From contig JACRDO010000132.1 of NCBI GenBank assembly GCA_016212885.1, positions 28,779 through 92,778 on the forward strand: DNA of 64,000 nucleotides. Reading direction: 5' to 3'. Origin of the DNA: Elusimicrobiota bacterium. Lineage in GTDB: Bacteria; Elusimicrobiota; Elusimicrobia; UBA1565. Below are positions 2 through 37,578 of the stretch, in pieces. The notes under the pieces were generated by a model. The model was not told the origin of the DNA, ran no database searches, and was given only the letters and a program-made list of their open reading frames with translations. Each line of letters opens with the position of its first letter. Within the stretch, counting starts at the first letter, position 1. The translations under genes and the position numbers were made by a program.

Positions 2-660
2 GCGGCCAAGGCGGCGATGACGACAGCGCGCTACAGCTTGGCCGCGGCCGCGCTCAGCGGCAAGGTCTATGCGGTGGGAGGAATGGGCGGCACGCAGAAG
101 GAGAACGAGGAGTACGACCCGGCCGCCAACACCTGGGCCTCGAAGGCTCTGATGACTACGGCCAGGAACAGCCTGGCCGCGGCCGCGGTCGGAGGCAAGG
201 TGTACGCGGTGGGCGGAACGGGCGGCACCGAAAAAGAGAACGAGGAGTACGACCCGAACGTCAACACCTGGGCGTCGAAGACCGCGATGACCACGGCCCG
301 CTCCGGCCTGGCCGCCGCGGCTGTGGGGGGGAAGATCTACGCGGTTGGAGGCTCCGGGCCCTCGGGAGCCAACGAGGAGTACGACCCCGCAACCAACGGC
401 TGGACATCCAAGACCGCGTTGACCATAGCCCGCTCCGGCTTGGCCGCGGCGGCTGTAGGGGGGAAGATTTACGCGGTTGGAGGGACCAACGGAGTCGTCT
501 TGTCCTCCGCCGCGGAGTATGATCCGGGAAGCAATACCTGGTCCGCGAGAGCTCAGATGCCCACGGCCCGTCAGCAGCTGGCTTTGGCGGCGACGGGAGG
601 CAAGCTGTACGCGCTGGGGGGCATAGGCGGCGCGAACAATGAGAACAAGGAGTACGACCC
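2..660 (+). repeat. Kelch-type beta-propeller repeats (about 5-6 units of ~48 aa) inside the giant CDS
   Basis: Tandem units with the pattern W.SK.(A/L)MTTAR..LAAAAVGGK(I/V)YAVGG....NEEYDP..N.W, visible at both DNA and protein level. Confidence 0.75.
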
Positions 661-3600
661 GGGCTTCTCGCAGAAATTCACCGGGCTGACCCCGAACACG
701 CTCTATACCTTCAAGGCCAGGGGCCGCAACGCGAGCGGGGCCGAAACCCCCGAAACTCCGGCGATCTCGACCTATACCTTGGCGCTGGCGCCCGGAGGGC
801 TCGTGGCCGCGTCCTCTTTCACGAATGTCGCCTCTACCGGGGTGCGGGTGAACTGGTCATCTGGGACCCCTGCGGGCTACAATCCAATCGGGACATTGTA
901 CCGGCTCGAGCTGGCCACGGCCGCGAGCTTCACGACCCTGGCGGGGTCTTCCCAGACCTACAACACCTACGCCGGCCTGACGGGGCTGACCCCAAGCACC
1001 AAGCCTTATTTCGCGCGGGTCGAGGCGATCAGCGGCGCAGGCATTCCCACCTCCTGGCTCAGCCTCGGCTCCCTGTCCTCAGGGACCCTGCAGGTCACGA
1101 TCAGCACTTTCGCCGGGACCGCGGGCAACTCCTACGCCATCGCTTGGGGAGACTACGACAACGACGGCAATCCGGACCTGGCCGTCGCGAACTATGGACT
1201 GAACATCCTGCTCCTGCGCAACAACGGAAACGGGACCTTCGCCCAGTCCACCATCCTTGCCACCGCGGGCAACTATACCGGCATTGCTTGGGGGGACACC
1301 GACAACGACGGCCTCCTGGACCTGGCCGTGGCCGTCAACGTGGGGGATGAATTCATCCTGCACAACGACGGCGGCGGGGCGTTCACCCCCAATACCCTGA
1401 CCGGCTCCGGCGGCAATTCCTACGCCGTCGCCTGGGGAGACTATGACAACGACGGCCGCCTGGACCTCGCGGTGGCCAACGACTTGGCCCAGGACGACTA
1501 TGTGGCGCGCAACAACGGCAACGGGACGTTCGCCATCGTCCCACTGACCCAGACGCTCGGCAATTCGAGGGGCATCGCCTGGGGGGATTACAACAACGAC
1601 GGCTACCTGGACCTGGCCATCGGCAACACGGACAAGGATGTCGTCATCGTGCGCAACAACAACGGCGTCAGCTTCTCGACCTTCGCCGTCACGGGCTCCG
1701 GCTTTGCCAATGGCGGCATAGCCTGGGGGGATTACGACAAGGACGGCTATCTGGACCTGGCCTTCGCGCTCAATACCGGCATCGTGGTCCTGCGCAACAA
1801 CGGCGGAGACGGCACGTTCGCCAAGAACACGATCTCGGCCCCCGGCAGCAACGCCGGCGTCGCCTGGACGGATTACAACGGCGACGGCAGGCTGGACCTG
1901 GCGGTCTCCCGCTCGGGCGGCCAGGCCCAGATCCTCCTGCGCAACGACGGCGGGGTGTCCTTTACGACTGTGACCTTCGCGGGGTCAGCGGGGGGCGCGG
2001 TTCGCGGGTTCTCCCTTGGGAACTTCGATTTGAGCGGGGGCCCGGATATCGCCCTGGCCAACGACGGCGGGAGCGACGAACTGCTGCTGCATAACGACGA
2101 CCAATTGGCCCATGCAGCCCCCGGCGCGCCCTCAGCCGGCTTCTCCGCGACGCTCCAGGAGTACAGTCTCTTTTCCAGCTCCGGAATCCTGGCCTTGAGC
2201 TGGGGCAACGGGACCGACGCGGAGACCTCGACAGCTGCTCTCCGGTACCTCCTCCGCATCGGGACCACGGTCGCCGGCAGCAGCACGACCTGCAAGATCC
2301 CGGCCAAGTTCGGGTTGGACGCGGGCGCAAGCGGCGGGTCCTTCCTCTATAGCACCAGGATATCCTCGGCTGCGGCCGGACTGCGCCTCATCCTGCAGAA
2401 GGAGACTACGGTTTATTGGGCCGTGATGACGCAGGACGGCGAGGGCCTGCGCAGCGCCGAGTCGGCCGAGCAGACGGCCTTTCTCGCCGCGCCTGGGCTT
2501 GTGACGGACCTGCGCGTGAGCGCGATCGTCTCCACGGGCCTTGGGGCGTCTTCCATGACCGTGACCCTGCAGTGGACCGCTCCCGGGGACAACGGCTACT
2601 CCGGGGCCATCACGAACGGCGCCTTCGAGATCCGCTGCTCCACGACAGAGGCCATCCTGAGCACCTCCGCCTACGCAGCTGCACAGGTCGCGGTCTCGCT
2701 GGCCACGTCGGTGGTCCCCGGCGCCCTGCAGACCCACAGCATCCCGTACCTGAACGCCGCGGCGACGCATTACTTCGCGCTCACCATGAAGGACGGCTTC
2801 GGGGCGCGTTCGGCCCTCTCCAACCCGGCGACGGCTCAGAGCTACGTCCTCCGGCTTCCAGCCAGCGCAGGGAACCTCTACGGGCTCGCCTGGGGGGATT
2901 ACGACGGCGACGGCCGGCCGGATATGGCCCTCTCGTACTACGGCGGGAGCGTGGTCCTCATGCATAACGACGGCAGCGGCGCCTTCACTCAGACGACCGT
3001 TCCGGGCACCTCGGGCAGCAATACGGGAGTCGCCTGGGGCGATTTCAACAGCGACGGACGGCTGGACCTCGCGGTGGCCGTGGACGGCTCAGACGAGTAC
3101 GTCCTGCGCAACAACGGCGACGGCACGTTCACCAATGTCCCGGTGACCGGCTCCGGCGGCAGGTCCTACGCGGTCGCCTGGGGGGATTACGACAACGACG
3201 GACTGCTGGACCTCGCGGTGGCCAACGAGACCGCTCAGGACGACCTTATCGCGCGCAACAACGGCAACGGGACCTTCACCCTCGTTCCTTTGACCCAGAC
3301 GATAGGCAACTCGAGGGGCGCGGCTTGGGGCGACTTCAACAACGACGGGTTCCTGGACCTGGCCATCGCCAACACGGATAAAGACGTGGTGCTCGCGCGC
3401 AACCTCGGCAACGGGACGTTCTCTACCGGCACCATCGGGGGCACGGGCGTCTCCACCGCGGCTGCGTGGGGAGACTACAACAACGACAATTATCTGGACC
3501 TGGCCGTGGCCAATTCCGACGGCGTCGCCCTCATGCGCAACAAAGGCGACGGCACGTTCGCCAAAGTCTGGATCGCAGGGACGGCCGGCAACAACGCAGG

Positions 3601-6600
3601 GCTCGCCTGGGCGGACTTCAACAACAACGGCTTCCTGGACCTCCTGGTGTCCCGCCCAGGAGGCTCGGCGCAGCTGCTGCTGCGCAACAACGGCGACGGG
3701 ACGTTTACGCAGACGCTTCTGCCCCTGCCCGGGAGCAACGTCGTCAACGTCTCCTGGGGCGATTTCGACGCTGACGGGGATTTGGACATCGCCGCCGGCA
3801 GCCGCGGCTGGATCGACGCGTTCATCTTCCGCAACGACGCGGCCCTGGCCCATAACGCCCCGGCTGCGCCGGTCTCCGGCTTCTCCGCCACGTTCCAGGA
3901 ATACGCCGCTTTTTCGAGCACAGGCGTGCTGACCCTGAGCTGGGGCGACGCCTCCGATGTGGAGACGCCGACCAGCGCGCTCAATTATCTCGTGCGCGCC
4001 GGCACGGTGGTCTCCGGCAGCAGCGCGACGCTCAAGATTCCCTTCAATTACGGCCTCGACGGCGCAGCGGGCGGGGGCTCCTTCCCCTACGGCACGAGGG
4101 TTTCCGCCCTCCAGCGCGGGCTAAAGTTCGCCGGCTTCAGCAAAGGAGCGACCATCTATTGGGCGGTCGCGGCCGAAGACGGAGAGGCCCTGCGCAGCGG
4201 CGAGTCCGCGGAGCAGACGGCGAATCTCACTCCGCCGGCAAGCGTCAACAACCTCGCGGCCGCGCAGGACGCCGCAGTCGAGACCTCCTCGGTTTCCTGG
4301 GTCAGGCTCACCTGGACGGTCCCGGGGGAGAACGGAACGAGCAATCCGCTTCTGCCCGGGGCCCGCTACGACCTCCGCTGGAGCACCGTCGCTCCCGTGG
4401 CCCTGGAGTCCGACTACAACAGGGCCCCGAACCAGAGCCTCATCCCTGCGGACGGGGAGAGCCCGGGCGCGACGCATACCCAGCTCCTAGCGGTGACTGC
4501 GGGCAAGACCTACTACTTCGCGATGACGACGCTGGACAGCTGCAATTCCCGCTCCGGCCTGTCGAACGCCGCGAACATCCCGATGACCGCCTGGCTCCAG
4601 GAAGTCATCACGGATGCGGCGCCGCCCGCGGCGCTCCAGGGCGACACTACGGCGTTCCTCAAGCTCCGCCTCTGGACCAACTTGGGCTCGCTGAGCTGGA
4701 CCAAGCTCCGCGTGCGCAAACTGGGGACCCTGCCGGACGCCGCGGTCAAGAATGTGGCGATCTACGGCGACGCGAATACCAACGGGATCTTCGACTCCGG
4801 GGACACGGCGGCGCTCTACAGCGGCGTGCCGGCCGTGTTCGCCTCCAGCGCCGTCACCCTGGCGGTCCAGACGGTGGGGCAGACGATCAGCAACTCGACC
4901 CGGACATATTTCCTGACCCTGCAGCTCGAGCCCTCCTATCTGCCGCAGGACGGCTCGACGGCGGCGCTCAAGCTCGACGGCGAGGCCTTCAGCGTCATAG
5001 GCGGCGGAGTGCTGGGGACGGACTTCCCGGGACTGCTGCTCGACGGGATAGACGACCGGGTTCGCGCGAGCGACTCGGCGGTCCTCGACCCCCCCAACCA
5101 GATCACGCTCGACGCCTGGGTTCGCACGACGGATCCCGGCCCCAACCGGTCCATCATCACCCATTCAAACGCCTCAGGCACCGACGGCTACCGGCTCTGG
5201 CTCAACGGCTCGACCTGCGGCGCAGGCGTTCCGACGCTCTTCATCGGCCCGAGCGTCCTCTGCGCCAACCGCGGCGGGAGCCCAGTCTCCATCGCAGACG
5301 ACCGCTGGCACCAGGTTTCGGCCGTGTACAGCATCGCCGGAGGACTCGGACAGCTGATGTTCATCGACGGGGAGATGCTCTCCACGGGGCCGGTGACGGG
5401 ATCGATAAGCGACTCCGCAAGCGAGCTCGGGGTCGGAGGCCCCAACAACTACGCCGGGAATTATCTCAACGGGAAGATCGACGAGGCGCGCATCTCGCAG
5501 ACCGCGCGCTACACGTCGTCCTTCATCCCTTGGCGCCGCAGCGACACGGACTACAACACGGTGCTCCAATACCATTTCGACGCGATGGACGGGACCGGCA
5601 CGGTGGTCACGGACGCCGCGGGGCAGGTGACGGGCATCCTGGACGGACAGGCCCGGGGCTACGGGCGGTCCACGGCGACGGTCGTCGTGGACGCGCAGGA
5701 CATGATGATGTCGAGCGCGACCAGCCTCCTGCCGGACACACTCTACCGGAACGCGGTCAACGTCCCGGTGCTGAAATTGCAGCTTTGGGCGAGTCAGGAC
5801 AACGTCATCATCAACCGCCTCTCGGTCGCGCAGACCGGCACAGGCGCATCCGCCGGAGTGGCGAACCTCCGCCTCTACCGCGACAACGGGGACGGATACT
5901 TTCAGCCCACGCTGGACCAAAGCCTCACGCTCGGGCAGGTCTTCTCCGTGAACAAGGCGACCTTCGACCTCCTAGGCGCCACACCGCCCGCGCCCCAGCA
6001 GGTCTGGTCCTCCACGAAGACCTACTTCGTCGTCTGGGACGTGACCGGCGGCGCGGAGACAGGGAAGAGCCTGGGCCTGGCGATCTCGACCGACGACTTC
6101 GTCCTGGCCGGCGCGACCGACGCCGTTTCGACCGCGGCCTTCCCGCTGCGCGCAAGTACGGTGCCCGTAGTGTCCGCCCGGGTCTACGTGACGCCCGAGA
6201 CCCCGCCGAGCGCTTGGGTCAACGTCTCCTCCCTCGTTTTCATAGGCGACTTCACGCTTGGGAACGTGGACCATTTCTATTATCTATTCGACCAAAACCC
6301 GGGGACCCAAATAAACGGCGGCGGGAGCGAGACGCTCTGGACCATCGGAAAAGCGACGGCTACGGCGACAGCGGACGGCAGCAGCTGGTATTTCCACGTG
6401 CGGGCCTTCGATTATCTGGGCCAGGGCGGGACCCAGACGGACTTCGGGCCGTACTTCGTGGACCGCACGCGGCCGACAGGGGCCTCGTTCGTCCACTTCA
6501 ACTCGACGGGCGGCGCGCTCGGTCAATCCCAGGTCAACGACCTGGCCCAGCCGGTGACGGCCCAGCTCAGCGTGCAGGACTCCGGCGCCGGGCTCAATGT

Positions 6601-9600: not shown

Positions 9601-12600
9601 TCCCGGGAGGACGTTCGAATACGACGGGACCCAGTGGTCTCAGTCCGGAACGTTCCCCAGCGACGTCCTGACTCTGAAGGAGTTCCGGGGCAAGCTTTAC
9701 GCCGGGCTGTCCGGGGGCTCGGTCTACTCGTTCGATGGGATAAGCTGGAACTTGGCCGCGTCTCTTCCGGCGGCCCGGGTCAACGCCTTGGCGGAGCATA
9801 ACGGGCGGCTCTACGCCGCGACCGGAGCCGAGGGCCAGATTTTCGCGTTCGACCCGGACGCCGGCGGCTGGTATGAGGTCTTTCGGGCCACTGAGCCGGA
9901 GTTCTTCTCCCTTAAGTCCTACAATGGGCGGCTCTTCGCGGGAGCGGGCCCGGACATCTACTCCTTCGATGGGAGCACCTGGACCGTGACGAACTGGATC
10001 GGAGGGTCGGCCCGCGCCTTCGAGGTCTACCGGGGCCGCCTCTACGCGGGCACGAACATCTCCGGGTATATCTACGCCTATGACGGCAGCGTCTGGACGC
10101 GTCCCTTGGACATCAGCGAGGATTTCAACCGGGCTCTCGGCGTCTTCGGCGGCCGCCTCTACCTCGGCGCCAGCCTGCCGAGCAACGGCCGGATCTACAT
10201 GTACGACGGCAACACCGGCCCCGGCGGGCTGCTCGTCTATACCCTGCCGACCCCGGCCGACTCGATCTACGCCATCGCCAGCTACGGGAACCGGCTCTAC
10301 CTCGGCGGCACGAGCCCCTCCGGCGCGAAGGTCTACGTCTCCACGCCTCTGGCGGTCAGCCTCACGGGCTTAGACGGCGCCAAAACGCCGGAACAACTCA
10401 AGATCACGGGGCTTAATCCGATCCAGTCCGTCAACGCGAACATCTGCAATGGGAACTGGGCCTGCACGGCCACCAACCAGGTCCGCTTCACGGCTGCGGA
10501 CCAAGCGGGCAACATCGGCCAAGCTGGGCCCTTCGCGATCCTGGTCGATCCGTCGCTTTCGCCTCCCACGGCGCTCTATCCGCCTTCCGGCTCATTCGTC
10601 CGCTCCAGCAGCCCCACGTTCGTATGGGCGGAGTCGAGCGCGATGTCGATCCACAACGTGCAGGTCTCCAGCCAGGCGGCTTTCACGAACCTGAGCCTCG
10701 ACAGCATCGCGAACACGCCCGCCTACACTTCTCCGGTTGCGCTTGCGAACGCCACCACCTATTATTGGCAGGTGCGCAGCCGCAGCCCAAGCGGCATCTA
10801 CTCGGCCTTTTCGGCAGTCAACGCCTTCGTCATGGACCTCAGCCGGCCCACGACCTCGGTGTTCCTCCATTTCGGTTCGACCGGAGGCCCTCTCGCAGAG
10901 AGCCAGTTCGGGAATCTGGCCGCAGGGGTGACGGTCGAGATCACTCTCCAGGATATCGTCTCCGGCTTGGACCGCGGGCCGAGGCGCCAGCCGGTGAGCG
11001 GCGCCGCGGCGCTCTATCCCTTCGACGAGGGCTTCGGCATGTACGCCTCGGGTCTCGGCGGGGAATACCGCCTCGCCTTCAGCTCCGGCGCGTCGTGGGC
11101 TCCAGGCCTCATCAGCTCCGCGGTCTTGACCGGCGGAGCGACCTATCTCTACAACGCCTCTCCAAACTACAACCCGGCCTGGCCCGCGGTCGGCCTGCCG
11201 ATCGCGGGCGGGACGAGGACAATCGAGGCCTGGATCTACCCGCTGGACGGGCAAGGAGGCGGCATACTGCATTACAGCGACTTCCGGCTCCACATCAGCG
11301 GCAGCTGCTCCGGCCCCGTTCCCGGCAACAGCTATCTCTGCGTGAATGCAAGCCAGGGGGCCGCGTATACCTTCACCCCCAGCCAATGGCACCACGTCGC
11401 CTACACCTATGCCGGAGGGACGCATACCCTCTACGCCGACGGAATTTTGCTGGGCTCCTTCCAGCAGATGCTCAATACTCCGGGGGCCGGGCCGATCTTC
11501 GTCGGGACAGCGACCGACTGCGGCGCATTCCGCGGCCGCATCGACGAGCTGCGGATTCTCGCCAAGGCGCTCTCGGCCGCGGAGGTGGACTCGGGCTATC
11601 GGCTTTCGGGCGCCTTCCGCGTGTCCTACTCCTCCGACGGGGGCGCCAACTGGACGGTCGTGACCGCCACGGCGCCGGCCTGGGGCCCGCACCTGGTCTT
11701 GAGCGGCCCGCCGGGGAGCACGGCCCCGCAGACCCTGAGGCTCGAGAACTTCTCGCTGGCGCAATCGACGATCCTGGCGACCGGGGCGTACGGCACGAAC
11801 CAGGTGGTCTTCTCGGTCTCGGACCAGGCAGGCAACGAGGCGACGGCAGGCCCCTTCACTGTCCTGGTGCAGACGTCCGTTCCGCAGCCCATATTGACTT
11901 CCCTGACCCCGCGCTCGACGGAGTCCATCTTCGCGACCGCCATCGCGACCGACCCCCTGAGCGGAGTCATGGAATACCGCTTCGAGGCGTCCCCCAACAA
12001 GACCTTCGCCCCGCCGGTCTCCACCTCTCCATGGGTGGCGGTGTCGACCTATCTTCCCACGGCGCTGCTGGGCTGGGCGTCCGCTTCCTCCTACACCTTC
12101 ACCGGGCTCGCCAGCGCGACGACTTATTACGTCCGCGTCACGGTCCACGACAACTTGTCGAACCTCTCGCCTCCCTCGGATGTGGGGAAAGTGGCGGGTT
12201 TCGCGGTGGACGCCGCCACCTCGACCTACGGGAGCGTGTTCTTCTCCACCAAGAGCGTCGCGCCGGCTTCAGCCCTGCAGAATACCGACGTGGCGATGCT
12301 GAAGTTCATGCTCGCCACGCCCCTCGGCTCCAGCTCACAGTTCTACTCGCTGACCGTGCGCAAGACCGGCACGGCTCCGGATGCGGCGATGCAGAAAGCC
12401 CTCATCGCAATAGACAACAACGGCGACGGGATCTACACCAAGGGCGTGGACGCGGTGCTGGCCGAGGCGCCGTTCACGAACTCGGTGGCGACCCTCAGCC
12501 TGGCCGCGGCCGGCAACTCCGAGAATCTGGGGCCGGCCCTGAAGACGTTCTTCATCGCCTACCGGGTGACGACGGACGCCCAGCCCGGCCTCACCGTGGG

Positions 12601-15600
12601 AGTCGACAACATCACGGAGGCGGATTTCGGCCTCCAGTTCCCCTCGCGCGCGGAAGGCCCATTCCCCACCAATGTCCCGCTGATCCCGATCGCCGACGGG
12701 CCCAACGCGCTGACCGTGACGGCCTTCAACCTCGCCCCGGCCGAGGTCCAGCCCAACACCCTGAACGTCGCGCTCCTGCGCCTGAGCGCCGCGACGGACA
12801 CCGGCACGAGCATCATCTCGACCATGACGTGGCGGCTGCAGGCGAGCCAGCCCTTCAACCAGCTCACGGGCCTCACGCTCTGGCGCGACAAGAACGGCAA
12901 CGGGCTCTTCGAGCCGGGCATCGACGAGAGGGTGACCAGCGGCAACGACTCCTTCACGAACGGATACTCGACGATGGCCCTGACCACCCCGGAGATATCT
13001 TCGCGGACGGTGAAGACGTCCGCGGTCAACTACTTCCTGAGCGCGAACGTGAGCGCGAGCGCCCCGCAGGGGACGACCTTCAGGATCGCGCTGTCCACTC
13101 CGCCGGACGTGCGTCTGGAGAACCCGCTCGATACCGTAAGCTTCACGCAGATCCCCATCATCACGAGCAGCTGCACCATCATACAGAACAACATCGTCTG
13201 GATCTCGACCACGGATCTCTCGCCGGGAGCGTACGGCCAGACTTACTTCCAGGGGAACCTCTATTCGGTGCTTCGCGCGACGCTGAGCGTGGACATCGGT
13301 TTCGCGGAGATCAACCAGGTCACGATGGACCGGACCGGCGACGCGCAGCAGGACGACGTCCAGTACGTGGCGGTTTACAGGGACCAGAATCTCGACGGCG
13401 GACCCCTGAACCCGGTGGTGGATGTGTTTCTCGGCTCTGCGATGTTCGATCCTCTTAAGAAGGCCACCATCGATATCACCACGGCGACGGTCGCCGCGGG
13501 CGCGACGACGGTGTTCTTCATCGCCTATCAGATCAACCCCGCAGCCAGCCCCGGCCGCACGCTCGGCGGCTCCATGACGAACTCGAGCTACTTCCATACG
13601 TCCAATCCCGCGAGCGTCGTTTCGTCGGTCACGATGGATGGGAGCTCCCTCTTTGAGATCAAGACGGCCACCGCGCAGATCGAGGCGACGCAGAACCAGA
13701 TGAAGATCCCGCTCGCGCAGTCCGCGGCCCCCGGCGCGATCGACCAGGTGGCCAACGACATCGGGATGCTGCGCGTCGACATGGTTTCCGACCGCAACAA
13801 CTTCAACTGGCTGAGCCTCATCGTGCGGAGCATCGGAACCGCGCTGGATTCCGACGTCCGGAACGTGCGCGTATTCCGGGACGACGGAAACGGCCTCTTC
13901 TCGGCGTCCTCGGACACCGCCATCAGCGACATCTCCCAGACCTTCACCGGGGGCCAGGTCAACATCCCGCTCTCCATCCCGCAGGCCGTCACCGGCTCGA
14001 CGCAGACCTACTTCGTGACGCTCAGCCTCAACCCCTCGGCCGTGCCGGGAAGGACCGTGGGGGTGGTGATCCCCTCGACGGCGAGCTTCAATGTTAGCTC
14101 GCCGAACAAGGTCTCCAGCCAGACCGCGCTCGGGCCGTTCGCGGGCGGCCCGGTGGCGATCAACCAATTCGCGAACACCATCGCGGTCTCTACCCGCGGC
14201 ATCACGCCCCCGCTCGGCGCGGTCCCGGGGGCGAGGAACGTCGGCCTGCTCGATCTGACGCTCAAGACCAATGTCTCGAACGCGGGCTGGGCGGGACTCA
14301 AGATCGACCAGGCCGGGAGCGCGTCGGACTCGGACATCACCGAGGTGAAGGTCTACTACGACCTCAACAACAGCGGCTTCTTCGACCCCGCAAACACCCA
14401 GCAGTATCTCCTGGTCAGCTCCACCGGGCAGCGCTTCGGGCAGGTCCAGGCCGGCAGCGTGGACATCGTCTTCCCGAGCACCCCCTCGCTGGGCCCGGCC
14501 CCGCAGAGGTATTTCGTAGCCGTGGACCTCGCCGACGACGCGACGCCGGGCAAGACGGTGGCCCTGCGCGCCATCAGCAAGGACTACTTCGTTCCGGTGG
14601 CGCCCAACCAATTCGGTCCGGTGAGCTTCAACTCCCAGCCGCCTATGGACCAGGTCGAGATCAAGGCTCCGCCGGCGCTGATGTACGTCCTTGGAACCAG
14701 CTCCGCGCCGGCCGAAGTCGCGCAGGGCACCGCGAACGTCGTGATGGCGGCGCTGAAGGTCTGGATGTCGAGCTACACGGGGCAATGGACCCAGCTCAGC
14801 GTGGACCGCTCCGGCGCGGGCATCGACTCGGACATCAGCGGGGTCAAGCTGTTCTACGACACCAACGGCAACGGCCGGCTCGACGTCATGACGGACGAGC
14901 GGATCAGCACGGCGAGCTTCATCGGGGGCACGGCCGCCCTGATGTTCTCGACCCAGACGATCACGACCAGCTCGAGGACCTACTACCTGACCTACGACCT
15001 CTCCATGACCGCGGTCGGAGACCACGCCGTGGGGGCCGCCATCAACGCCCCCGGCCTGCTGGCCGTGGCCATGCCCAACAGCGTATCGAGCGACAACTTC
15101 CCGTTCGCGTCGGCCGCCTCGAGGGTCGTCACCACACGCGCGGACCTCTTCGTCGTGGGCCAGAACAAGGCGCCGGGCATGCTGATACAGGGCGCCACGA
15201 ACCAGGTGATGCTCAGCCTTCAACTGAGCACGACGGAGCATGCCATCCTCTGGAGCGGGCTCACCGTGCGCTCCTTGGGCACGGCCGCGGACTCGGACAT
15301 CAGCAGCGTGCACATATGGAAGGACGTCAACGCAGACGGCTTCCTGGAGGCGGACATGGACCAGGACATGACCTCCGGGCTCAACGGATTCCTGGGCGGG
15401 TCCGCGGTTGTAAGCCTGATCACCGCGCAGACGATCAGCATGGCTCCCATGCGCTACCTCGTGACGGTGGACGTGGCCAGCTGCGCCTCGCCCTCCGCGA
15501 GCTTCGGGCTTACGCTGGCAGCGACGAACGCCTTCTCCGTGAACGCCCCCAACACGGTCGTGGACTCAGGCTTCCCGATCTCGTCGGTCGTCGTCTCGCT

Positions 15601-17077
15601 CAAGAAGAGGGCGGAGCAGCTTCTCGTTTCGCCCTCGGACCTCGTGCCGGCGACCGGGATCAACCAGGGACTCGAGGCCTCCGTCGCCAAGCTCGCCTTG
15701 AGAGCCTCGCGCAACAAGGTGGGCTGGACCCAGGTGAGGCTCGCCCGGATCGGGACCCTCAGCGATTCGGACATCGAGGAGGTCCGCCTCTATCGCGACG
15801 AGGACGCTTCCGGGGCCCTCAGCCCCGCGGATATCCTCATCGGCGCCGGAACCTACAACTCGGGCTCGGCGTCCATCGTGTTCGCCCCCGCCTTCGTGCA
15901 GACGATCACCCTCTCGACCCAGACCTACCTCGTGTCCTACAAGATCAAGCCCTCGGCGACCGTCAATGCCGTCGTCGGGCTCACCGTGGCAGAGTTCACG
16001 GTCGACAACCCGGACAGCGTCTCGCTGACGGGCCTTCCGTTCTCGACTTCGCTCGCGAAGATCCTCGATTCCCGAACGCCGAGCCGGCCCGTCGTGACGG
16101 TGGCTGACGGCGCGTTCAGCAGCAAGTCCGAATACCTGCAGTTCAACTGGCAGTCGAGCGTAGTGCTCGGGTATCTGGCGGGCGCCTTCTACGCGATCGG
16201 AACCACCACGGGAGGGACCGACTTGACGAATGGCTTCAAGCCGATCCGGGTCTCTGAGCTCTCCGTCCGAGCGACGGGCTTTGTCTTGCAAGACCAAACG
16301 ATGTACTACGTCTCCGTGAAGACCCAGTCGAACGAAGGCTGGTTCAGCCCCGTAGGCACCTCGAACGGGGTCTTCATGGACTTCGTCATCCCGCCGACCC
16401 CCGCGGCCAAGATCCACCCCCCCGGGGAGAGCACGCTTCGGGTCAGCTGGGGCTCGGTGACCGGCGGGCTCTCGGGCATCGCCGGCTACCGCATCGAGTA
16501 CCGCCGGGCGCAGAGCCCCGTGTGGTACAACGCGAAGACCAAGCAGCCGATTTCTGAAACCGGAGTCTCGGCAGCCGGAATGGGCGGGAAGGGGCTGCGC
16601 GCCGCGGCTGTCTCGCCCGATGAGCTCGTCACCGGAGTCTCGTACCAGGCCACCGACATGCCAAGCGGAACATTGTACGTGCGCATGCGCGCGTTTTCAA
16701 CCGCGGGCCTGGCCAGCGCGCCGACCGACCCGGAGAAGGTCCAGATGGGGCCGCCGGGGACGGCGGCCATCAGCCAGATATCCTGCGCTCCCAACCCGTT
16801 CGACTCTCGAACAAAGCATGGGTGCATCGTGTACACCCTCAGCCAGGATGCCGACGTGACCATCAGCATCTTCAATGTCTTCGGCGGCCTAATTAAGACC
16901 ATGTCGTATTCGGCCGGGTCCGCCGGCGGGCAGAAGGGGACCACAGATATCACGGCCTGTCCGGTGTTCTGGGACGGGACCGACGAGTCGGGACAGAAGG
17001 TCTCCAAGGGCATCTATCTGGCGGTCATCCAGTCCGGCGGGGCCAAGGAAATCCTGAAGATCGGCGTCATCCACTAG
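2..17077 (+). CDS. Giant secreted multi-domain surface protein (adhesin-like), 5'-partial, >5686 aa
   Basis: One uninterrupted frame runs from the window edge to TAG at 17075-17077. Codons 2-16 (AAKAA) continue the Kelch repeat pattern seen downstream, so the true start lies upstream of the window. Domain and repeat grammar is coherent along the whole length (see sub-features). Overlapping ORFs in other frames are Arg/Gly/Pro-rich artefacts. Confidence 0.9.
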   Translation, partial: AAKAAMTTARYSLAAAALSGKVYAVGGMGGTQKENEEYDPAANTWASKALMTTARNSLAAAAVGGKVYAVGGTGGTEKENEEYDPNVNTWASKTAMTTARSGLAAAAVGGKIYAVGGSGPSGANEEYDPATNGWTSKTALTIARSGLAAAAVGGKIYAVGGTNGVVLSSAAEYDPGSNTWSARAQMPTARQQLALAATGGKLYALGGIGGANNENKEYDPGFSQKFTGLTPNTLYTFKARGRNASGAETPETPAISTYTLALAPGGLVAASSFTNVASTGVRVNWSSGTPAGYNPIGTLYRLELATAASFTTLAGSSQTYNTYAGLTGLTPSTKPYFARVEAISGAGIPTSWLSLGSLSSGTLQVTISTFAGTAGNSYAIAWGDYDNDGNPDLAVANYGLNILLLRNNGNGTFAQSTILATAGNYTGIAWGDTDNDGLLDLAVAVNVGDEFILHNDGGGAFTPNTLTGSGGNSYAVAWGDYDNDGRLDLAVANDLAQDDYVARNNGNGTFAIVPLTQTLGNSRGIAWGDYNNDGYLDLAIGNTDKDVVIVRNNNGVSFSTFAVTGSGFANGGIAWGDYDKDGYLDLAFALNTGIVVLRNNGGDGTFAKNTISAPGSNAGVAWTDYNGDGRLDLAVSRSGGQAQILLRNDGGVSFTTVTFAGSAGGAVRGFSLGNFDLSGGPDIALANDGGSDELLLHNDDQLAHAAPGAPSAGFSATLQEYSLFSSSGILALSWGNGTDAETSTAALRYLLRIGTTVAGSSTTCKIPAKFGLDAGASGGSFLYSTRISSAAAGLRLILQKETTVYWAVMTQDGEGLRSAESAEQTAFLAAPGLVTDLRVSAIVSTGLGASSMTVTLQWTAPGDNGYSGAITNGAFEIRCSTTEAILSTSAYAAAQVAVSLATSVVPGALQTHSIPYLNAAATHYFALTMKDGFGARSALSNPATAQSYVLRLPASAGNLYGLAWGDYDGDGRPDMALSYYGGSVVLMHNDGSGAFTQTTVPGTSGSNTGVAWGDFNSDGRLDLAVAVDGSDEYVLRNNGDGTFTNVPVTGSGGRSYAVAWGDYDNDGLLDLAVANETAQDDLIARNNGNGTFTLVPLTQTIGNSRGAAWGDFNNDGFLDLAIANTDKDVVLARNLGNGTFSTGTIGGTGVSTAAAWGDYNNDNYLDLAVANSDGVALMRNKGDGTFAKVWIAGTAGNNAGLAWADFNNNGFLDLLVSRPGGSAQLLLRNNGDGTFTQTLLPLPGSNVVNVSWGDFDADGDLDIAAGSRGWIDAFIFRNDAALAHNAPAAPVSGFSATFQEYAAFSSTGVLTLSWGDASDVETPTSALNYLVRAGTVVSGSSATLKIPFNYGLDGAAGGGSFPYGTRVSALQRGLKFAGFSKGATIYWAVAAEDGEALRSGESAEQTANLTPPASVNNLAAAQDAAVETSSVSWVRLTWTVPGENGTSNPLLPGARYDLRWSTVAPVALESDYNRAPNQSLIPADGESPGATHTQLLAVTAGKTYYFAMTTLDSCNSRSGLSNAANIPMTAWLQEVITDAAPPAALQGDTTAFLKLRLWTNLGSLSWTKLRVRKLGTLPDAAVKNVAIYGDANTNGIFDSGDTAALYSGVPAVFASSAVTLAVQTVGQTISNSTRTYFLTLQLEPSYLPQDGSTAALKLDGEAFSVIGGGVLGTDFPGLLLDGIDDRVRASDSAVLDPPNQITLDAWVRTTDPGPNRSIITHSNASGTDGYRLWLNGSTCGAGVPTLFIGPSVLCANRGGSPVSIADDRWHQVSAVYSIAGGLGQLMFIDGEMLSTGPVTGSISDSASELGVGGPNNYAGNYLNGKIDEARISQTARYTSSFIPWRRSDTDYNTVLQYHFDAMDGTGTVVTDAAGQVTGILDGQARGYGRSTATVVVDAQDMMMSSATSLLPDTLYRNAVNVPVLKLQLWASQDNVIINRLSVAQTGTGASAGVANLRLYRDNGDGYFQPTLDQSLTLGQVFSVNKATFDLLGATPPAPQQVWSSTKTYFVVWDVTGGAETGKSLGLAISTDDFVLAGATDAVSTAAFPLRASTVPVVSARVYVTPETPPSAWVNVSSLVFIGDFTLGNVDHFYYLFDQNPGTQINGGGSETLWTIGKATATATADGSSWYFHVRAFDYLGQGGTQTDFGPYFVDRTRPTGASFVHFNSTGGALGQSQVNDLAQPVTAQLSVQDSGAGLNVVGPAPLAPSPGTVSLWRLDDTSGAVWKDSGPASISLSSVGVVSRGAGRFGSGVLLAGSGDLRSASPAGLPTGAVPRAIEAWINPVSTQGTLGLVSWGTSGAGTLMRFSMVSGQLAADMGGITVSGGPVLSTGVWQHAAFSYDGSAARLYLNGALAASQSVGALATALGTLFIGATESGGRFWGSIDEVRIMNSALADGQVYDDCTRGHPYFVAFSSSAGSSWQVVVATGAGAGARVGLDGAHGSTGPQTLKVKGLPLNVSTSSAAGALATNQVIFYQTDRAGNTNILGPYGILVDTNPQVAYSTPILPGDGMYTGARPWFEWTGPSTAITAGMGGANGLGGSFYLQVSSNDPTFADPNIVLSISTPAIMGDNTLPKVYGVYLSTHSLGEGATYYWRIRSKSFLDVLGPWGPWKSFVVDASTPAAANYRMYSATGGVVLEGQYTDLMLGVTAQTTVTDNLSGFSKSFRFDPAAGTVALWHFSERDGLAPKDASGNNNTAALLGISGGPPGYRTSPFGAGLRCGGSHVFRTSNAQFDFPANSNMTFEAWVNPDDVSGIQALGGVGSVTFPGGNWLLRISDGRLFFSNNTGFINSPAMMSAGVWQHIAMTLRGARVAFYINGVQVAAGLSGSGGNSGGPSVQPFTLCAAVDNDGVTYQSPYSGMIDEVRVLNYAADPLQIAADYAATLSGIYAVEYSTTAGASWIVVSATAPASGWAHLELGGSEGSVGPEAWSVRNLQLVHSTSAAIGYQATNQIRFSVPDRAGNTRLSGPYAAIVDTTVAAAVSTPSYPANGAFLTQQPNFLWSGPSTKTASGMGLAASYFLEAAADPAFASPVISISTPVIIQSTFAAATFGAYLSTYTLMDATTYYWRVRSRDFLGLLSPPLSVSSFVTDLGAPAGSAFRSFNSTGGATAEDLVNNLTSNVTAYVTFQDPGSGLKVSPAAGAMPFGVIYSTTGGAGNSAWVDGGRTAEGGLPESWWDPTVATITALATFQSRLYAGAAGPGRTFEYDGTQWSQSGTFPSDVLTLKEFRGKLYAGLSGGSVYSFDGISWNLAASLPAARVNALAEHNGRLYAATGAEGQIFAFDPDAGGWYEVFRATEPEFFSLKSYNGRLFAGAGPDIYSFDGSTWTVTNWIGGSARAFEVYRGRLYAGTNISGYIYAYDGSVWTRPLDISEDFNRALGVFGGRLYLGASLPSNGRIYMYDGNTGPGGLLVYTLPTPADSIYAIASYGNRLYLGGTSPSGAKVYVSTPLAVSLTGLDGAKTPEQLKITGLNPIQSVNANICNGNWACTATNQVRFTAADQAGNIGQAGPFAILVDPSLSPPTALYPPSGSFVRSSSPTFVWAESSAMSIHNVQVSSQAAFTNLSLDSIANTPAYTSPVALANATTYYWQVRSRSPSGIYSAFSAVNAFVMDLSRPTTSVFLHFGSTGGPLAESQFGNLAAGVTVEITLQDIVSGLDRGPRRQPVSGAAALYPFDEGFGMYASGLGGEYRLAFSSGASWAPGLISSAVLTGGATYLYNASPNYNPAWPAVGLPIAGGTRTIEAWIYPLDGQGGGILHYSDFRLHISGSCSGPVPGNSYLCVNASQGAAYTFTPSQWHHVAYTYAGGTHTLYADGILLGSFQQMLNTPGAGPIFVGTATDCGAFRGRIDELRILAKALSAAEVDSGYRLSGAFRVSYSSDGGANWTVVTATAPAWGPHLVLSGPPGSTAPQTLRLENFSLAQSTILATGAYGTNQVVFSVSDQAGNEATAGPFTVLVQTSVPQPILTSLTPRSTESIFATAIATDPLSGVMEYRFEASPNKTFAPPVSTSPWVAVSTYLPTALLGWASASSYTFTGLASATTYYVRVTVHDNLSNLSPPSDVGKVAGFAVDAATSTYGSVFFSTKSVAPASALQNTDVAMLKFMLATPLGSSSQFYSLTVRKTGTAPDAAMQKALIAIDNNGDGIYTKGVDAVLAEAPFTNSVATLSLAAAGNSENLGPALKTFFIAYRVTTDAQPGLTVGVDNITEADFGLQFPSRAEGPFPTNVPLIPIADGPNALTVTAFNLAPAEVQPNTLNVALLRLSAATDTGTSIISTMTWRLQASQPFNQLTGLTLWRDKNGNGLFEPGIDERVTSGNDSFTNGYSTMALTTPEISSRTVKTSAVNYFLSANVSASAPQGTTFRIALSTPPDVRLENPLDTVSFTQIPIITSSCTIIQNNIVWISTTDLSPGAYGQTYFQGNLYSVLRATLSVDIGFAEINQVTMDRTGDAQQDDVQYVAVYRDQNLDGGPLNPVVDVFLGSAMFDPLKKATIDITTATVAAGATTVFFIAYQINPAASPGRTLGGSMTNSSYFHTSNPASVVSSVTMDGSSLFEIKTATAQIEATQNQMKIPLAQSAAPGAIDQVANDIGMLRVDMVSDRNNFNWLSLIVRSIGTALDSDVRNVRVFRDDGNGLFSASSDTAISDISQTFTGGQVNIPLSIPQAVTGSTQTYFVTLSLNPSAVPGRTVGVVIPSTASFNVSSPNKVSSQTALGPFAGGPVAINQFANTIAVSTRGITPPLGAVPGARNVGLLDLTLKTNVSNAGWAGLKIDQAGSASDSDITEVKVYYDLNNSGFFDPANTQQYLLVSSTGQRFGQVQAGSVDIVFPSTPSLGPAPQRYFVAVDLADDATPGKTVALRAISKDYFVPVAPNQFGPVSFNSQPPMDQVEIKAPPALMYVLGTSSAPAEVAQGTANVVMAALKVWMSSYTGQWTQLSVDRSGAGIDSDISGVKLFYDTNGNGRLDVMTDERISTASFIGGTAALMFSTQTITTSSRTYYLTYDLSMTAVGDHAVGAAINAPGLLAVAMPNSVSSDNFPFASAASRVVTTRADLFVVGQNKAPGMLIQGATNQVMLSLQLSTTEHAILWSGLTVRSLGTAADSDISSVHIWKDVNADGFLEADMDQDMTSGLNGFLGGSAVVSLITAQTISMAPMRYLVTVDVASCASPSASFGLTLAATNAFSVNAPNTVVDSGFPISSVVVSLKKRAEQLLVSPSDLVPATGINQGLEASVAKLALRASRNKVGWTQVRLARIGTLSDSDIEEVRLYRDEDASGALSPADILIGAGTYNSGSASIVFAPAFVQTITLSTQTYLVSYKIKPSATVNAVVGLTVAEFTVDNPDSVSLTGLPFSTSLAKILDSRTPSRPVVTVADGAFSSKSEYLQFNWQSSVVLGYLAGAFYAIGTTTGGTDLTNGFKPIRVSELSVRATGFVLQDQTMYYVSVKTQSNEGWFSPVGTSNGVFMDFVIPPTPAAKIHPPGESTLRVSWGSVTGGLSGIAGYRIEYRRAQSPVWYNAKTKQPISETGVSAAGMGGKGLRAAAVSPDELVTGVSYQATDMPSGTLYVRMRAFSTAGLASAPTDPEKVQMGPPGTAAISQISCAPNPFDSRTKHGCIVYTLSQDADVTISIFNVFGGLIKTMSYSAGSAGGQKGTTDITACPVFWDGTDESGQKVSKGIYLAVIQSGGAKEILKIGVIH
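1090..4590 (+). repeat. Internal tandem duplication of a ~580-aa module (FG-GAP/VCBS propeller plus Fn3-like tail) in the giant CDS
   Basis: Copy 1 spans about 1090-2860 and copy 2 about 2870-4590. Each has 8-9 FG-GAP units (AWGDYDNDG.LDLAVAN....L.RNNGNGTF) followed by AH(A/N)AP.AP..GFSAT(L/F)QEY...LSWG...AL.YL.R.GT. Some stretches are nearly identical between copies (LTGSGGNSYAVAWGDYDNDGRLDLAVAN vs VTGSGGRSYAVAWGDYDNDGLLDLAVAN). The period is about 1740 nt. Confidence 0.8.
6465..11880 (+). repeat. Four copies of a ~465-aa super-repeat (Ig-like / LamG / Ig-like / Fn3-like) in the giant CDS
   Basis: Units start near 6465, 7858, 9272 and 10840, each opening with F..(F/Y).STGG........(N/D)L...VTA...(V/F)QD..SGL. 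Next comes a LamG/ConA-like block (..(E/D)AW(I/V)NP....W(Q/H)H.A..Y.G....LY.NG.......(I/G).IDE(V/L)R(I/V)). Then come (Y/F).V.YS...G..W.VV...TNQ(V/I).F...D.AGN....GP....VD and P..G.......P.F.W.GPS....YYW(R/Q)(I/V)RS. In the third unit the LamG block is replaced by a beta-propeller. Confidence 0.7.
9540..10345 (+). other. Second beta-propeller-like region (about 8 blades of ~40 aa) replacing LamG in super-repeat unit 3
   Basis: Recurrent (F/Y).(G/N)(R/K)LY(A/L)G......G.(I/V)Y.(F/Y)DG..W units, e.g. FRGKLYAGLSGGSVYSFDGISW, YRGRLYAGTNISGYIYAYDGSVW and FGGRLYLGASLPSNGRIYMYDG. Confidence 0.6.
12230..16060 (+). repeat. Array of 8 tandem ~160-aa modules, each with an embedded D.N.(D/N)G..D Ca-loop-like motif; family not recognised
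   Basis: Period is 460-500 nt. Each unit has (V/A).(M/L)L(K/R)(F/L).L........W..L.V...GT..D.D(I/V)..V.(L/V)(Y/W).D.N.(D/N)G.(F/L)(D/E)....D......F......(L/V)......(I/V)......TYF(V/L). Loop motifs sit near 12410, 12880, 13375, 13870, 14350, 14850, 15310 and 15790. Two more diverged copies lie near 4660-5000 and 5760-6130. Confidence 0.7.
16780..17074 (+). other. C-terminal FlgD-Ig-like / T9SS-type sorting domain (CTD) of the giant protein
   Basis: The terminal ~95 aa read CAPNPFDSRTKHGCIVYTLSQDADVTISIFNVFGGLIKTM.....WDGTDESGQKVSKGIYLAVIQSGGAKEILKIGVIH. This matches the NPF...(I/V).Y.L.....V...I(F/Y)...G.L(V/I)..L......WDG.D..G..V..G(I/V)Y signature of FlgD_ig / Por secretion tail domains. Confidence 0.7.
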
Positions 17078-18773: not shown

Positions 18774-18786
18774 CAAAAAGGCAATG

Positions 18787-18802
18787 AAAGCCCCGGCTTT
18801 TT
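18787..18802 (+). terminator. Weak hairpin plus T-tract after the barrel gene (AAAGC-CCCG-GCTTT-TT)
   Basis: 5-bp stem, 4-nt loop and a short T run, 14 nt after the stop codon. It is too weak to assert termination. Confidence 0.2.
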
Positions 18803-18823
18803 CCTGCATACTTGAGCGGTGAC

Positions 18824-21331: not shown

Positions 21332-21334
21332 GCT

Positions 21335-22459
21335 ATGGCGGAGAAAGTCGACTTCCTTCTCGCCTCCCTGCGCGGCCAGCCACCGCCCGAGGCCCCGCCG
21401 TCCGTCGAGGCCCAGGCGGCTGCGGCCGCCTCGGAAGAGCAGCTCGCCCCTCTGCGCTCGAAGGTCGAGGAGCTCGAGCGCAAGCTCGCCGAGCTCTCGG
21501 CGCCGCCCGCCCCGCCGGAAGGCGCGGAGGCTCCGGCGGAGCCGCCCAAGCCGCCGACCGAACTGATGATGTTCCTGCACACGCGCATGGAGCTTCTCGA
21601 GCGCCGCCTGGAGCTCGCCCAGCAGGAGGCCCTGCGGGCCAACCTGGTCCTCCGCGAGCGCGAGGAAGCGCAGAAGAAGGCCCAGGGCGAGGTCGAGGAG
21701 CTCTTCCGCTCGATCCGCGAGCAGGAGCGCTCGGCCCGCTTCGACCGGAGGCTGCGCGAGCAGTACTCCGCGACCCACTCCCGCGTGGAGGAGCTGGAGG
21801 CCCGGCTGGCCATGGCCCAGCTGCGCATGGTCCCCGCCGACGAGGTTCTCCGGTCTATCGAGAGGGAGGAGGGCTTGGGCGAGCTCCGTTCCCGGCTGAA
21901 GGAGCAGCTTTCAAGGATGTCCGGGGGGGAGCCGTCCGTCGGCGCCCCGGCGCCGGCCCCGCCCCCAGCGCCTCCGGCAGGGGCCCCGGACCGGCCCGAG
22001 GGACCCGCACGGCCCGCGCAGGACGCCCCGTTCAACTATAGCGAGCTTCCGCCCCTTTCCATCGTGACGGCCAAGATCGCCGATCTTGAGCTTCGGCTCG
22101 CGGAGGCCGAGAAAGCCCGCGAGAAGGAGCGCCAAAGCCGCCTCCTCTGGGAGAACAACGTCCTTCAGGCGCTCCGGCAGTCCTCCGGCCGCTGGCAGAA
22201 AGCCGGCGGAGCCGGGCTTCTGGTGGAGGCGACTTTGGAGAGTATGGTAGAGTTGCTCAAGAAGAGGGACCTCCTCGCCGGGGAGACGGCTCAGATCCTG
22301 GACAGGCTCCGGTCCGAGCCGCCGGGCTCGGGGGAGGAGCCCCTCCTGCGGGCGCGGCTCGCGGAGCTGCGCAAGAGCATCGAAGAGCTCCAGGGCGAGC
22401 TCGACAAGAAGATGGCGATCGTCAACGCCTGGACCGAGCGGAATAAAGGCAAGGATTAA
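21335..22459 (+). CDS. Coiled-coil / proline-rich protein of unknown function
   Basis: ATG lies 3 nt after the preceding stop. Heptad-rich Glu/Arg/Leu segments (VEELERKLAEL, RMELLERRLELAQQEALRANL, IADLELRLAEAEKAREKERQ) are separated by Pro/Ala linkers. No recognisable family. Confidence 0.6.
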   Translation: MAEKVDFLLASLRGQPPPEAPPSVEAQAAAAASEEQLAPLRSKVEELERKLAELSAPPAPPEGAEAPAEPPKPPTELMMFLHTRMELLERRLELAQQEALRANLVLREREEAQKKAQGEVEELFRSIREQERSARFDRRLREQYSATHSRVEELEARLAMAQLRMVPADEVLRSIEREEGLGELRSRLKEQLSRMSGGEPSVGAPAPAPPPAPPAGAPDRPEGPARPAQDAPFNYSELPPLSIVTAKIADLELRLAEAEKAREKERQSRLLWENNVLQALRQSSGRWQKAGGAGLLVEATLESMVELLKKRDLLAGETAQILDRLRSEPPGSGEEPLLRARLAELRKSIEELQGELDKKMAIVNAWTERNKGKD

Positions 22460-23197: not shown

Positions 23198-23200
23198 ATC

Positions 23201-37568: not shown

Positions 37569-37578
37569 GCGGCGAACG

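Follow-up and report, generated by a model that had tools for sequence, protein, structure and literature searches.

A giant mosaic protein of Elusimicrobiota with a T9SS-like C-terminal domain, encoded beside PorV-like and flagellar motor-type genes

Introduction

Substrates of the type IX secretion system (T9SS) such as SprB and SprF are arranged as a cargo and its cognate barrel. Here we analyze a 64,000-nt stretch of an Elusimicrobiota contig (JACRDO010000132.1 of assembly GCA_016212885.1, positions 28,779 to 92,778, forward strand; hereafter the window, whose own numbering is used throughout), in which a giant gene for a mosaic repeat protein, cut by the window edge at its 5′ end, is followed by a gene for a PorV/PorQ-family protein and by genes of flagellar motor type. 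Like SprB of Flavobacterium johnsoniae, whose properties are established knowledge, the giant is beta-rich, repetitive, in the size range of ~6,500–7,000 amino acids (aa) and equipped with a T9SS-class C-terminal domain (CTD), and would likewise be a surface adhesin. Both genes also adjoin a gene for an outer-membrane protein of the PorP/PorQ/PorV type, SprF being PorP-like. The two differ in that the CTD of the giant is type-A/FlgD-Ig-like rather than type B, its domains are Kelch, FG-GAP, LamG and a new beta-sandwich module, the neighboring motor genes are of the MotAB and FliF/FliG type and not GldLM, and Elusimicrobiota are without a described T9SS.

With large, repetitive, calcium-dependent adhesins from Gram-negative bacteria, such as those of the MpIBP, LapA, SiiE and Bap type, the giant appears to share a stalk of tandem beta-sandwiches with Asp/Asn-rich loops that would hold ligand-binding domains off the cell, but it has no RTX repeats, no type I secretion system (T1SS) signal and no retention module, and is presumably anchored by its C-terminal T9SS-like domain. 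Similar in being very large, multidomain, presumably extracellular and from mostly uncultured related lineages are the giants of Omnitrophota, Elusimicrobia and CG03 (bioRxiv 10.1101/2023.11.21.568195), and a passage of PMC12057145 that cites West-Roberts et al. 2023 calls giant genes common in Elusimicrobia. Unlike those giants, the present protein is far smaller than the 30,000–85,000-aa examples, has no enzymatic domains, ends in a defined sorting domain and is encoded in a conserved neighborhood. Our literature searches returned no description of this giant family or of its gene cluster. The cluster itself recalls the MS-ring, C-ring and stator of the flagellum, with a FliF RBM3-like domain, the middle and C-terminal domains of FliG, and stator subunits of which A is PomA-like and B carries plug and OmpA-like domains, but its rotor parts are fused in one polypeptide with a histidine kinase, the charges of the torque helix are not conserved, FliG_N was not detected and the phylum is reported to be flagella-less.

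We favor, at a probability of about 0.7, the reading that the giant is a Sec-exported, surface-attached multivalent adhesin on a long stalk, with a T9SS-like CTD and a PorV-like partner. A first-pass annotation of the same DNA had described the giant gene, and nearly all of its account holds; it had recognized neither the taxon nor the conserved set of genes downstream, and it is this set that matters most for function.

Results

An intact open reading frame that continues upstream of the window

Frame +2 of the window is free of stops from base 2 to 17074 and closes with a stop codon at 17075–17077, yielding 5,691 codons, or 26.7% of the window:

2..17077, + strand: giant open reading frame (ORF), 5′-truncated at the window edge (stop-free frame; 7,028-aa gene call on a near-identical Logan contig)

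We estimate the chance of such a stop-free run at ~1e-60 for the GC content of the window (~66%), and no ORF in the other frames here exceeds ~1,000 aa. The translation begins inside a Kelch blade, so the window edge truncates the gene, whose missing extent follows from a second assembly: Logan contig SRR12113407_15668 (34,115 bp) matches window positions 7196–28339 with 9 substitutions and 0 indels over 21,144 nt, and its gene call for the giant ORF is 7,028 aa, uninterrupted and with the same stop. About 1,337 N-terminal residues (4,010 nt) therefore lie upstream of the window, which holds the 3′ 81% of the gene (5,691 of ~7,028 codons). The Pfam list of the Logan product opens with several Kelch entries. 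Neither genome_contigs nor metagenome_contigs contained an exact match to the first 60 nt of the window. No paper on the run SRR12113407 was found. One neighboring gene encodes a protein that matches NCBI MBI5244564.1 (locus tag HY922_12930, ‘Elusimicrobia bacterium’) at 100% identity.

An ORF of this kind could be an assembly artefact, either a chimera or a collapsed or expanded set of shorter repeat genes, given that short-read metagenome data underlie it, that its sequence is rich in internal repeats, and that the base-by-base comparison with the second assembly covers positions 7196–17077 of the ORF and excludes the first 7,195 nt of the window. We regard this as hardly credible. Internal DNA repeats reach at most 79–81% identity (the longest span 122 nt at 81% and 300 nt at 79%) and are too diverged to collapse. 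Over 7196–17077 the Logan contig is colinear with the window and free of indels, and its uninterrupted 7,028-codon ORF closes with the stop codon seen here. The domain order also recurs in six or more orthologues that were assembled independently. In view of the colinear second assembly, the orthologues and the diverged repeats we rejected repeat-driven misassembly, and the proneness to assembly collapse or expansion raised in the first-pass annotation is not borne out; the gene is real and intact, and misassembly is unlikely.

Propellers, LamG domains and beta-sandwich modules

The part of the giant encoded in the window divides as follows, amino acids being numbered from the window edge:

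2..646, + strand: five Kelch blades, aa 1–215 (Pfam Kelch_1 E 1.5e-36; five Y-A-V-G-G motifs)
647..1057, + strand: C-terminal half of one fn3 domain and one complete fn3 domain, aa 216–352 (Pfam; sequence reading)
1058..2803, + strand: FG-GAP module 1, aa 353–934 (FG-GAP_3 313 bits; loop positions; self-BLAST)
2804..4552, + strand: FG-GAP module 2, aa 935–1517, a duplicate of module 1 (49–65% aa identity to it)
4583..5026, + strand: DxNxDG-loop beta-sandwich copy 1 (internal hidden Markov model (HMM), E 4e-37)
5042..5509, + strand: first LamG domain, Laminin_G_3, aa 1681–1836 (Pfam E 3.4e-15, 56.9 bits against a cut-off of 27.6)
5693..6196, + strand: DxNxDG-loop beta-sandwich copy 2 (internal HMM, E 5e-41)
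6464..7855, + strand: super-repeat 1, aa 2155–2618, consisting of beta domain, LamG, beta domain and Fn3-like domain (self-BLAST, MAFFT, Pfam Laminin_G_3)
7856..9274, + strand: super-repeat 2, aa 2619–3091, with LamG at aa 2727–2878 (Pfam, self-BLAST, MAFFT)
9275..10837, + strand: super-repeat 3, aa 3092–3612, with a beta-propeller replacing LamG (self-BLAST, MAFFT, AlphaFold (AF2), Foldseek)
9521..10348, + strand: 7-bladed beta-propeller inside super-repeat 3, aa ~3174–3449 (AF2, Foldseek, conserved in orthologues)
10838..12211, + strand: super-repeat 4, aa 3613–4070, with LamG at aa 3735–3862 (Pfam, self-BLAST, MAFFT)
12221..16093, + strand: eight tandem DxNxDG-loop beta-sandwich modules with a period of ~160 aa, aa 4074–5364, the presumed stalk (internal HMM)
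16094..16786, + strand: two Fn3-like domains, aa 5365–5595, conserved along with the CTD (Pfam fn3; orthologue identity)
16787..17074, + strand: C-terminal sorting-type domain, aa 5596–5691, APNPFDSR ... WDGTD ... KIGVIH (FlgD_ig, TIGR04183, PDB profile)

The Kelch blades form a tandem Kelch motif (Kelch_1 123.9 bits against a cut-off of 20.1) encoded by tandem DNA repeats of 132–135 nt with 78–86% matches, and make up the final propeller of a Kelch array at the N-terminus, which extends upstream of the window. The complete fn3 domain after them (aa 272–348) has an E-value of 1.9e-10 and 41.3 bits against a cut-off of 25; the half-domain was assigned by reading the sequence against that of a relative, P0014. 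As read from window positions 2–760 and from P0014, each Kelch propeller appears to be inserted within an fn3 domain, whose N-terminal strands would precede the blades and whose ‘GLxPNTxYxFKAxARN’ strands would come after them, the window showing the C-terminal half only.

Each FG-GAP module comprises an integrin-alpha-like propeller followed, in module 1, by ~200 aa of beta-rich linker domains. FG-GAP_3 matched with 313 bits (E 2.7e-95, 13 stretches) and FG-GAP with 144 bits, and the two modules are offset by 582 aa at 49–65% identity (self-BLAST), with 79% DNA identity over the best 300 nt. Either copy carries seven DxDxDG loops (7 + 7, spaced 47–50 aa apart), which indicates two 7-bladed propellers of the integrin-alpha type.

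Four Laminin_G_3 domains were found by Pfam, at aa 1681–1836, within super-repeat 1, at aa 2727–2878 and at aa 3735–3862, with scores of 56.9, 138.3 (two stretches) and 61.8 bits against the cut-off of 27.6. The first of them has one copy of the beta-sandwich module on each side, and the other three lie in super-repeats of 464, 473 and 458 aa; with super-repeat 3 (521 aa) these show a mutual identity of 28–46%. In super-repeat 3 the place of LamG is taken by ~280 aa of ~40-aa repeats, for which no Pfam family rose above threshold and only Reg_prop and DUF6242 matched weakly. An AF2 model built on eight orthologous sequences gave blocks with confidence scores (pLDDT) of 71–97, mostly >85, and its best Foldseek matches were 7- and 8-bladed propellers of the WD40, Kelch and Reg_prop types, among them Fbw7, beta-TrCP, the designed Tako8, the Keap1 Kelch domain and the BT4663 sensor (E 6e-13 to 1e-10). 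Orthologues carry the same propeller at the same position (38–46% identity), so the exchange of LamG for a propeller is old, and a recent swap is ruled out.

For the DxNxDG-loop beta-sandwich, an HMM grown from one copy recovered ten (E about 1e-37 to 1e-47), two flanking the first LamG domain (aa 1548–1667 and 1918–2043) and eight in tandem within aa 4094–5342. The module has no Pfam match. Its structural neighbors are the beta-sandwich region of a Bacteroidota sialidase (8gn6_A, 4fj6), cohesins, an integrin alpha chain and biofilm-adhesin domains, with Bap, CLIPPER and Calx-beta domains also among them. An exhaustive profile search returned 2,967 representative proteins, 391 of them at E<=1e-30 and many of 5,000–7,176 aa; the module alignment found no match in a word-indexed database. 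The module also occurs in large proteins with classical-looking T9SS tails (P0004, P0039 and P0076, with ‘WPNPANP...’ and ‘NYPNPFNPNT...’), which are unlike the PNPFDSR...KIGVIH tail of Elusimicrobiota.

The first-pass annotation had anticipated most of this anatomy. It had proposed a single 5′-incomplete ORF filling 27% of the window, with Kelch blades at the start, two Fn3-like domains (in fact one and the C-terminal half of another), a duplicated ~580-aa FG-GAP module, a first LamG block flanked by Ca-loop modules (the beta-sandwich module above), four ~465-aa super-repeats (458–521 aa as measured), one of them with a propeller in place of LamG, eight further ~160-aa Ca-loop modules, and Fn3-like domains with a CTD at the end (fn3 27.6 bits, FlgD_ig 31.2 bits). 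Its count of two or three propeller types plus four LamG domains resolves to three and four, and from these domain families its suggestion of multivalent carbohydrate or protein binding is plausible.

In Pfam and NCBIfam scans, the 5,691 aa yielded no domain of catalytic, RTX or toxin type. We rejected an RTX/T1SS adhesin, as neither HemolysinCabind nor any other RTX model matched. The same scans bear on two other uses of so large a protein. One is an attachment or attack device directed against other cells, in predation or episymbiosis, as proposed for Omnitrophota giants: the protein is giant, extracellular by prediction and rich in binding domains, and giants of Omnitrophota and of related PVC-group lineages have been linked to cell–cell adhesion and predation (bioRxiv 10.1101/2023.11.21.568195; PMC12057145). 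The absence of any cell-wall hydrolase, toxin, Rhs, peptidase or lyase domain from the 5,691 aa, together with a window otherwise devoid of pointers to a predatory lifestyle, makes this improbable. The other is a cellulosome-like scaffold or polysaccharide-degrading surface complex; the cohesin similarity of the beta-sandwich module is at the generic beta-sandwich level (7–11% identity), and no glycoside hydrolase, lyase or dockerin family was detected, which leaves such a complex very improbable.

A C-terminal tail of a probable T9SS type-A/FlgD-Ig class

The protein ends in two Fn3-like domains (fn3 at aa 5470–5511, 27.6 bits against the Pfam cut-off of 25) and a CTD, and this tail is 41–57% identical across orthologues and Elusimicrobiota loci. 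FlgD_ig (PF13860) matched the isolated C-terminus with 31.2 bits, above its cut-off of 27, and the same region within a longer segment with 28.9 bits (aa 5607–5677). TIGR04183 was matched by 16/16 CTDs of the family (best E 1.5e-9). A profile built from the family CTDs found as its top PDB match the C-terminal stretch of PorU (6za2, residues 1056–1153 of 1156; E 6e-7), and also matched the C-terminal stretch of PorZ/PG93 (5m11) and FlgD Ig domains. The type-B model TIGR04131 did not match the CTD of the giant, and matched 4/16 family CTDs weakly (best E 1.4e-3). By sequence, the CTD probably belongs to the T9SS type-A/FlgD-Ig class.

A PNPx motif lies within the last 130 aa of 73/152 proteins (the 150 best module-profile matches plus two C-terminal fragments), a few of whose tails resemble classical T9SS tails. 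The C-terminal 352 aa of the giant found two short JGI fragments only in the word-indexed database. The full-length relatives P0006, P0009, P0021 and P0028 start with signal-peptide-like sequences. No second CTD-bearing gene is present in the window. The probable class of the CTD, the adjoining PorV/PorQ-family gene and the signal-peptide-like starts of relatives support the earlier description of one giant mosaic secreted or surface protein of nested repeats.

Conserved stalk and tail, variable head

Six orthologues (P0005, P0009, P0006, P0008, P0027 and P0012) match 36/38 consecutive 150-aa chunks of the giant at 43–53% identity and are colinear with it beyond the FG-GAP repeats, between ~aa 1350 and the C-terminus. 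In more distant relatives the C-terminal ~4,000 aa are retained but the N-terminal arrays differ, being Kelch-fn3 units in P0014 and other repeats, NHL-like by our reading, in P0021 and P0028. The colinear orthologues and the relatives with other N-terminal arrays therefore indicate a conserved stalk and tail and a variable distal head.

Searching one genome per species for the conserved C-terminal 329 aa yielded 72 related loci, nearly all in Elusimicrobiota metagenome-assembled genomes (MAGs) from groundwater and similar sources, the best being in UBA9639 (57% identity). In ~40 of these loci the CTD ORF is open across the whole 10-kb upstream flank and hence encodes >3,500 aa.

A conserved downstream cluster of PorV-like and motor-type genes

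The giant gene is followed, all on the + strand and tightly packed over 17196–24593, by six genes:

17196..18773, + strand: PorV/PorQ-family outer-membrane barrel with C-terminal TPR and N-terminal signal peptide (NF033709; Pfam UPF0164, TPR)
18812..21331, + strand: HK-FliF(RBM3)-FliG membrane protein, in the order transmembrane segment, HisKA/HATPase, transmembrane segment, FliF RBM3-like domain, transmembrane segment, FliG_M, FliG_C (Pfam; PDB profiles; HK, histidine kinase)
21335..22459, + strand: conserved coiled-coil protein without a Pfam family (Pfam scan; locus comparison)
22460..23197, + strand: MotA/PomA-type stator A subunit (Pfam MotA_ExbB, MotA_N; NCBIfam PomA E 5e-43 vs TolQ E 6e-8)
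23201..23881, + strand: MotB-type stator B subunit with plug and OmpA-like domains (Pfam MotB_plug, OmpA; NCBIfam MotD/MotB)
23898..24593, + strand: OmpR/PhoB-type winged-helix regulator (Pfam Trans_reg_C; NCBIfam PhoB-/NblR-like)

The PorV-like gene starts 118 nt past the stop of the giant gene, with no terminator-like site found on the + strand between them, and the later gaps are 0–50 nt. Pfam detected no receiver domain in the regulator. The order CTD gene, PorV-like, HK-FliF-FliG, coiled-coil, MotA, MotB recurs in no fewer than 13 Elusimicrobiota MAG loci and, in a looser form, in ~15 others. A PorV-like gene lies <=2.5 kb downstream of the CTD gene in 36/62 loci, and MotA and MotB lie downstream in 22/46 loci with >=9 kb of flank; the loci with PorV-like or MotAB neighbors are concentrated among those that share the whole Fn3-Fn3-CTD tail.

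In the fusion protein, the HisKA/HATPase kinase is intact with its invariant His, and apparently active. The periplasmic domain matches PF08345 (YscJ_FliF_C) in 13/13 orthologues (best E 2.4e-10; 24.8 bits against a cut-off of 23.8 for the protein in the window), and the five best PDB matches of its profile are all FliF (E 4e-6 to 5e-4). FliG_M and FliG_C score 34.6 and 60.5 bits, and the FliG part aligns end to end with FliG_MC of Thermotoga (1lkv, E 7e-17). The acidic pair of the torque helix is replaced (PKTWAILSQMMQ in the fusion vs SKRAAALLKDELE in Thermotoga), the EHPQ stretch of the Thermotoga FliG middle domain reads QDAE, and FliG_N was not detected in the fusion or in its orthologue clusters. 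With FliG_N undetected and with the EHPQR motif and the torque-helix charges not conserved, the protein is by its sequence a FliG-domain protein and not a canonical FliG.

The fusion has orthologues in 58 clusters at E<1e-95, whose members carry annotations as hypothetical or ATP-binding proteins and, where the source is named, come from Elusimicrobia/Elusimicrobiota, bar one NC10 and one unclassified record; the next matches were canonical FliG at E 1e-8. Some of the orthologues have no kinase part and are FliF-FliG only (490–609 aa). For the MotAB pair we also considered the Zorya anti-phage system, and rejected it because ZorA, ZorC and ZorD had no match and the similarity to ZorB is generic to MotB/OmpA. 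No FliM/N or export-apparatus genes are present in the window, and no hook or filament genes were seen in its partial annotation.

This neighborhood raises the possibility that the giant is the moving adhesin, a functional analogue of SprB, of a hitherto undescribed non-flagellar rotary machine, in which a ring of HK-FliF(RBM3)-FliG would be turned by MotA/MotB and would transmit its motion across the periplasm, to both the adhesin and the PorV-like/TPR protein, the outcome being gliding-type motility or power for exporting the giant cargo. The gene order from the CTD gene to MotB, kept on one strand with short gaps across the MAG loci above, argues for it, as do the FliF and FliG matches of the fusion, the PomA-like character of MotA and the plug and OmpA domains of MotB. 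It would also fit the reported gene content of the phylum: Elusimicrobia are reported to be without flagellar genes (PMC7031533), and free-living Elusimicrobiota carry many motAB and fliG homologues whose role has been called ‘unclear’ (bioRxiv 10.1101/2022.07.08.499144). Synteny alone is no demonstration of physical or functional coupling, however, and the rotor–stator interface is unproven because the torque-helix acidic pair, FliG_N and EHPQ are not kept. The motor genes are absent from half of the more distant CTD loci, and the organisms are without observed motility. We therefore consider a rotary role for the giant doubtful, though less so than the attack-device and scaffold readings.

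Some MAGs carry two or three paralogous giant-CTD loci (L003/L012, L006/L016/L048 and L007/L021), and a second type of cluster consists of PorV-like, MotA, MotB and then a distant HK/FliG-like gene; together these suggest several versions of the system per genome.

Other features of the window

Beyond the cluster, a run of F-type ATP synthase genes occupies 36175–44275 (atpA 38642–40156, an atpG-like gene 41507–42487, atpD 42854–44275), with a gene for an NAD-dependent epimerase/dehydratase (40389–41519; Pfam Epimerase E 4e-46) between those of the alpha and gamma subunits; the AtpD sequence had no match in an exact look-up. Two overlapping paralogous genes, 52807–54567 and 54564–56192, encode polytopic membrane proteins of 586 and 542 aa without a Pfam match, which share an N-terminal ‘D(V/L)FWHLSAGRW/ARF’ motif. 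On the − strand, 48226–49518 and 30527–33283 encode two secreted-looking proteins without a Pfam family, one of 430 aa with DxDxDG-type loops (‘LDLDDNGKPD’, ‘FDINGDGFKE’) and the other of 918 aa with a signal-like N-terminal segment. An AAA_14/DUF4143 ATPase gene (26649–28004, − strand) lies in the stretch of lowest GC content in the window (0.63), and the Logan contig ends shortly after it.

Discussion

The domain order, the probable class of the CTD and the adjoining PorV-like gene point to a surface-attached adhesin, which may work as follows. A Sec signal peptide at the N-terminus, upstream of the window, would direct the giant to the periplasm, where its Fn3-Fn3-CTD tail would be recognized by the PorV/PorQ-like outer-membrane protein encoded directly downstream, and the giant would be exported or anchored in a T9SS-like manner. 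The eight tandem DxNxDG-loop modules and the four super-repeats would form a long stalk, probably stiffened by calcium, and this stalk would present distal heads made of the Kelch propellers, the two integrin-like FG-GAP propellers, the propeller of super-repeat 3 and the four lectin-type LamG domains.

Several observations weigh against this reading. The CTD of the giant itself falls below the cut-offs of TIGR04183 (20.9 vs 23 bits) and PF18962 (15.1 vs 27 bits), and its PorV-like neighbor scores 80.8 bits with NF033709 (E 1.3e-22), below the cut-off of 90. None of the T9SS core components (SprA/Sov, PorK/L/M/N, PorU) was seen in the window, and our literature searches found no report of T9SS core machinery in Elusimicrobiota. 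The N-terminal 1,337 aa, including the position of the signal peptide, lie beyond the window. For the linkers of the super-repeats, the ‘Ig’ and ‘Fn3-like’ labels correspond to sub-threshold Pfam matches without a PDB profile match, and both calcium binding and the type of ligand are predictions.

With these points taken into account we still prefer the stalked adhesin with a T9SS-like CTD and a PorV-like partner; the artefact, cellulosome-like and predatory-weapon readings are less likely. More tentatively, and with odds clearly against it, Elusimicrobiota, reported to be without flagella, may have reused a flagellar-type rotor and stator, together with a PorV-like protein, as an envelope-spanning machine that has the giant CTD adhesins as its cargo or moving part, comparable in logic to SprB and its GldLM motor but assembled from flagellar-type components. 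If true, this apparatus for surface motility or powered secretion would be of a new kind, and would explain the ‘enigmatic’ motAB and fliG homologues of Elusimicrobiota.

The giant gene alone is a well-resolved addition to the giant surface proteins of uncultured bacteria, and it defines two building blocks without Pfam families: a 7-bladed propeller, and the DxNxDG-loop beta-sandwich of 160 aa, which ~3,000 representative proteins contain. Its conserved neighborhood ties a T9SS-like pair of cargo and sorting protein to rotor and stator genes of flagellar type, in a phylum reported to be without flagella. The cluster is thereby relevant to the reuse or origin of flagellar motor parts, and turns the puzzle of MotAB and FliG in Elusimicrobiota into a concrete hypothesis of motility or secretion.

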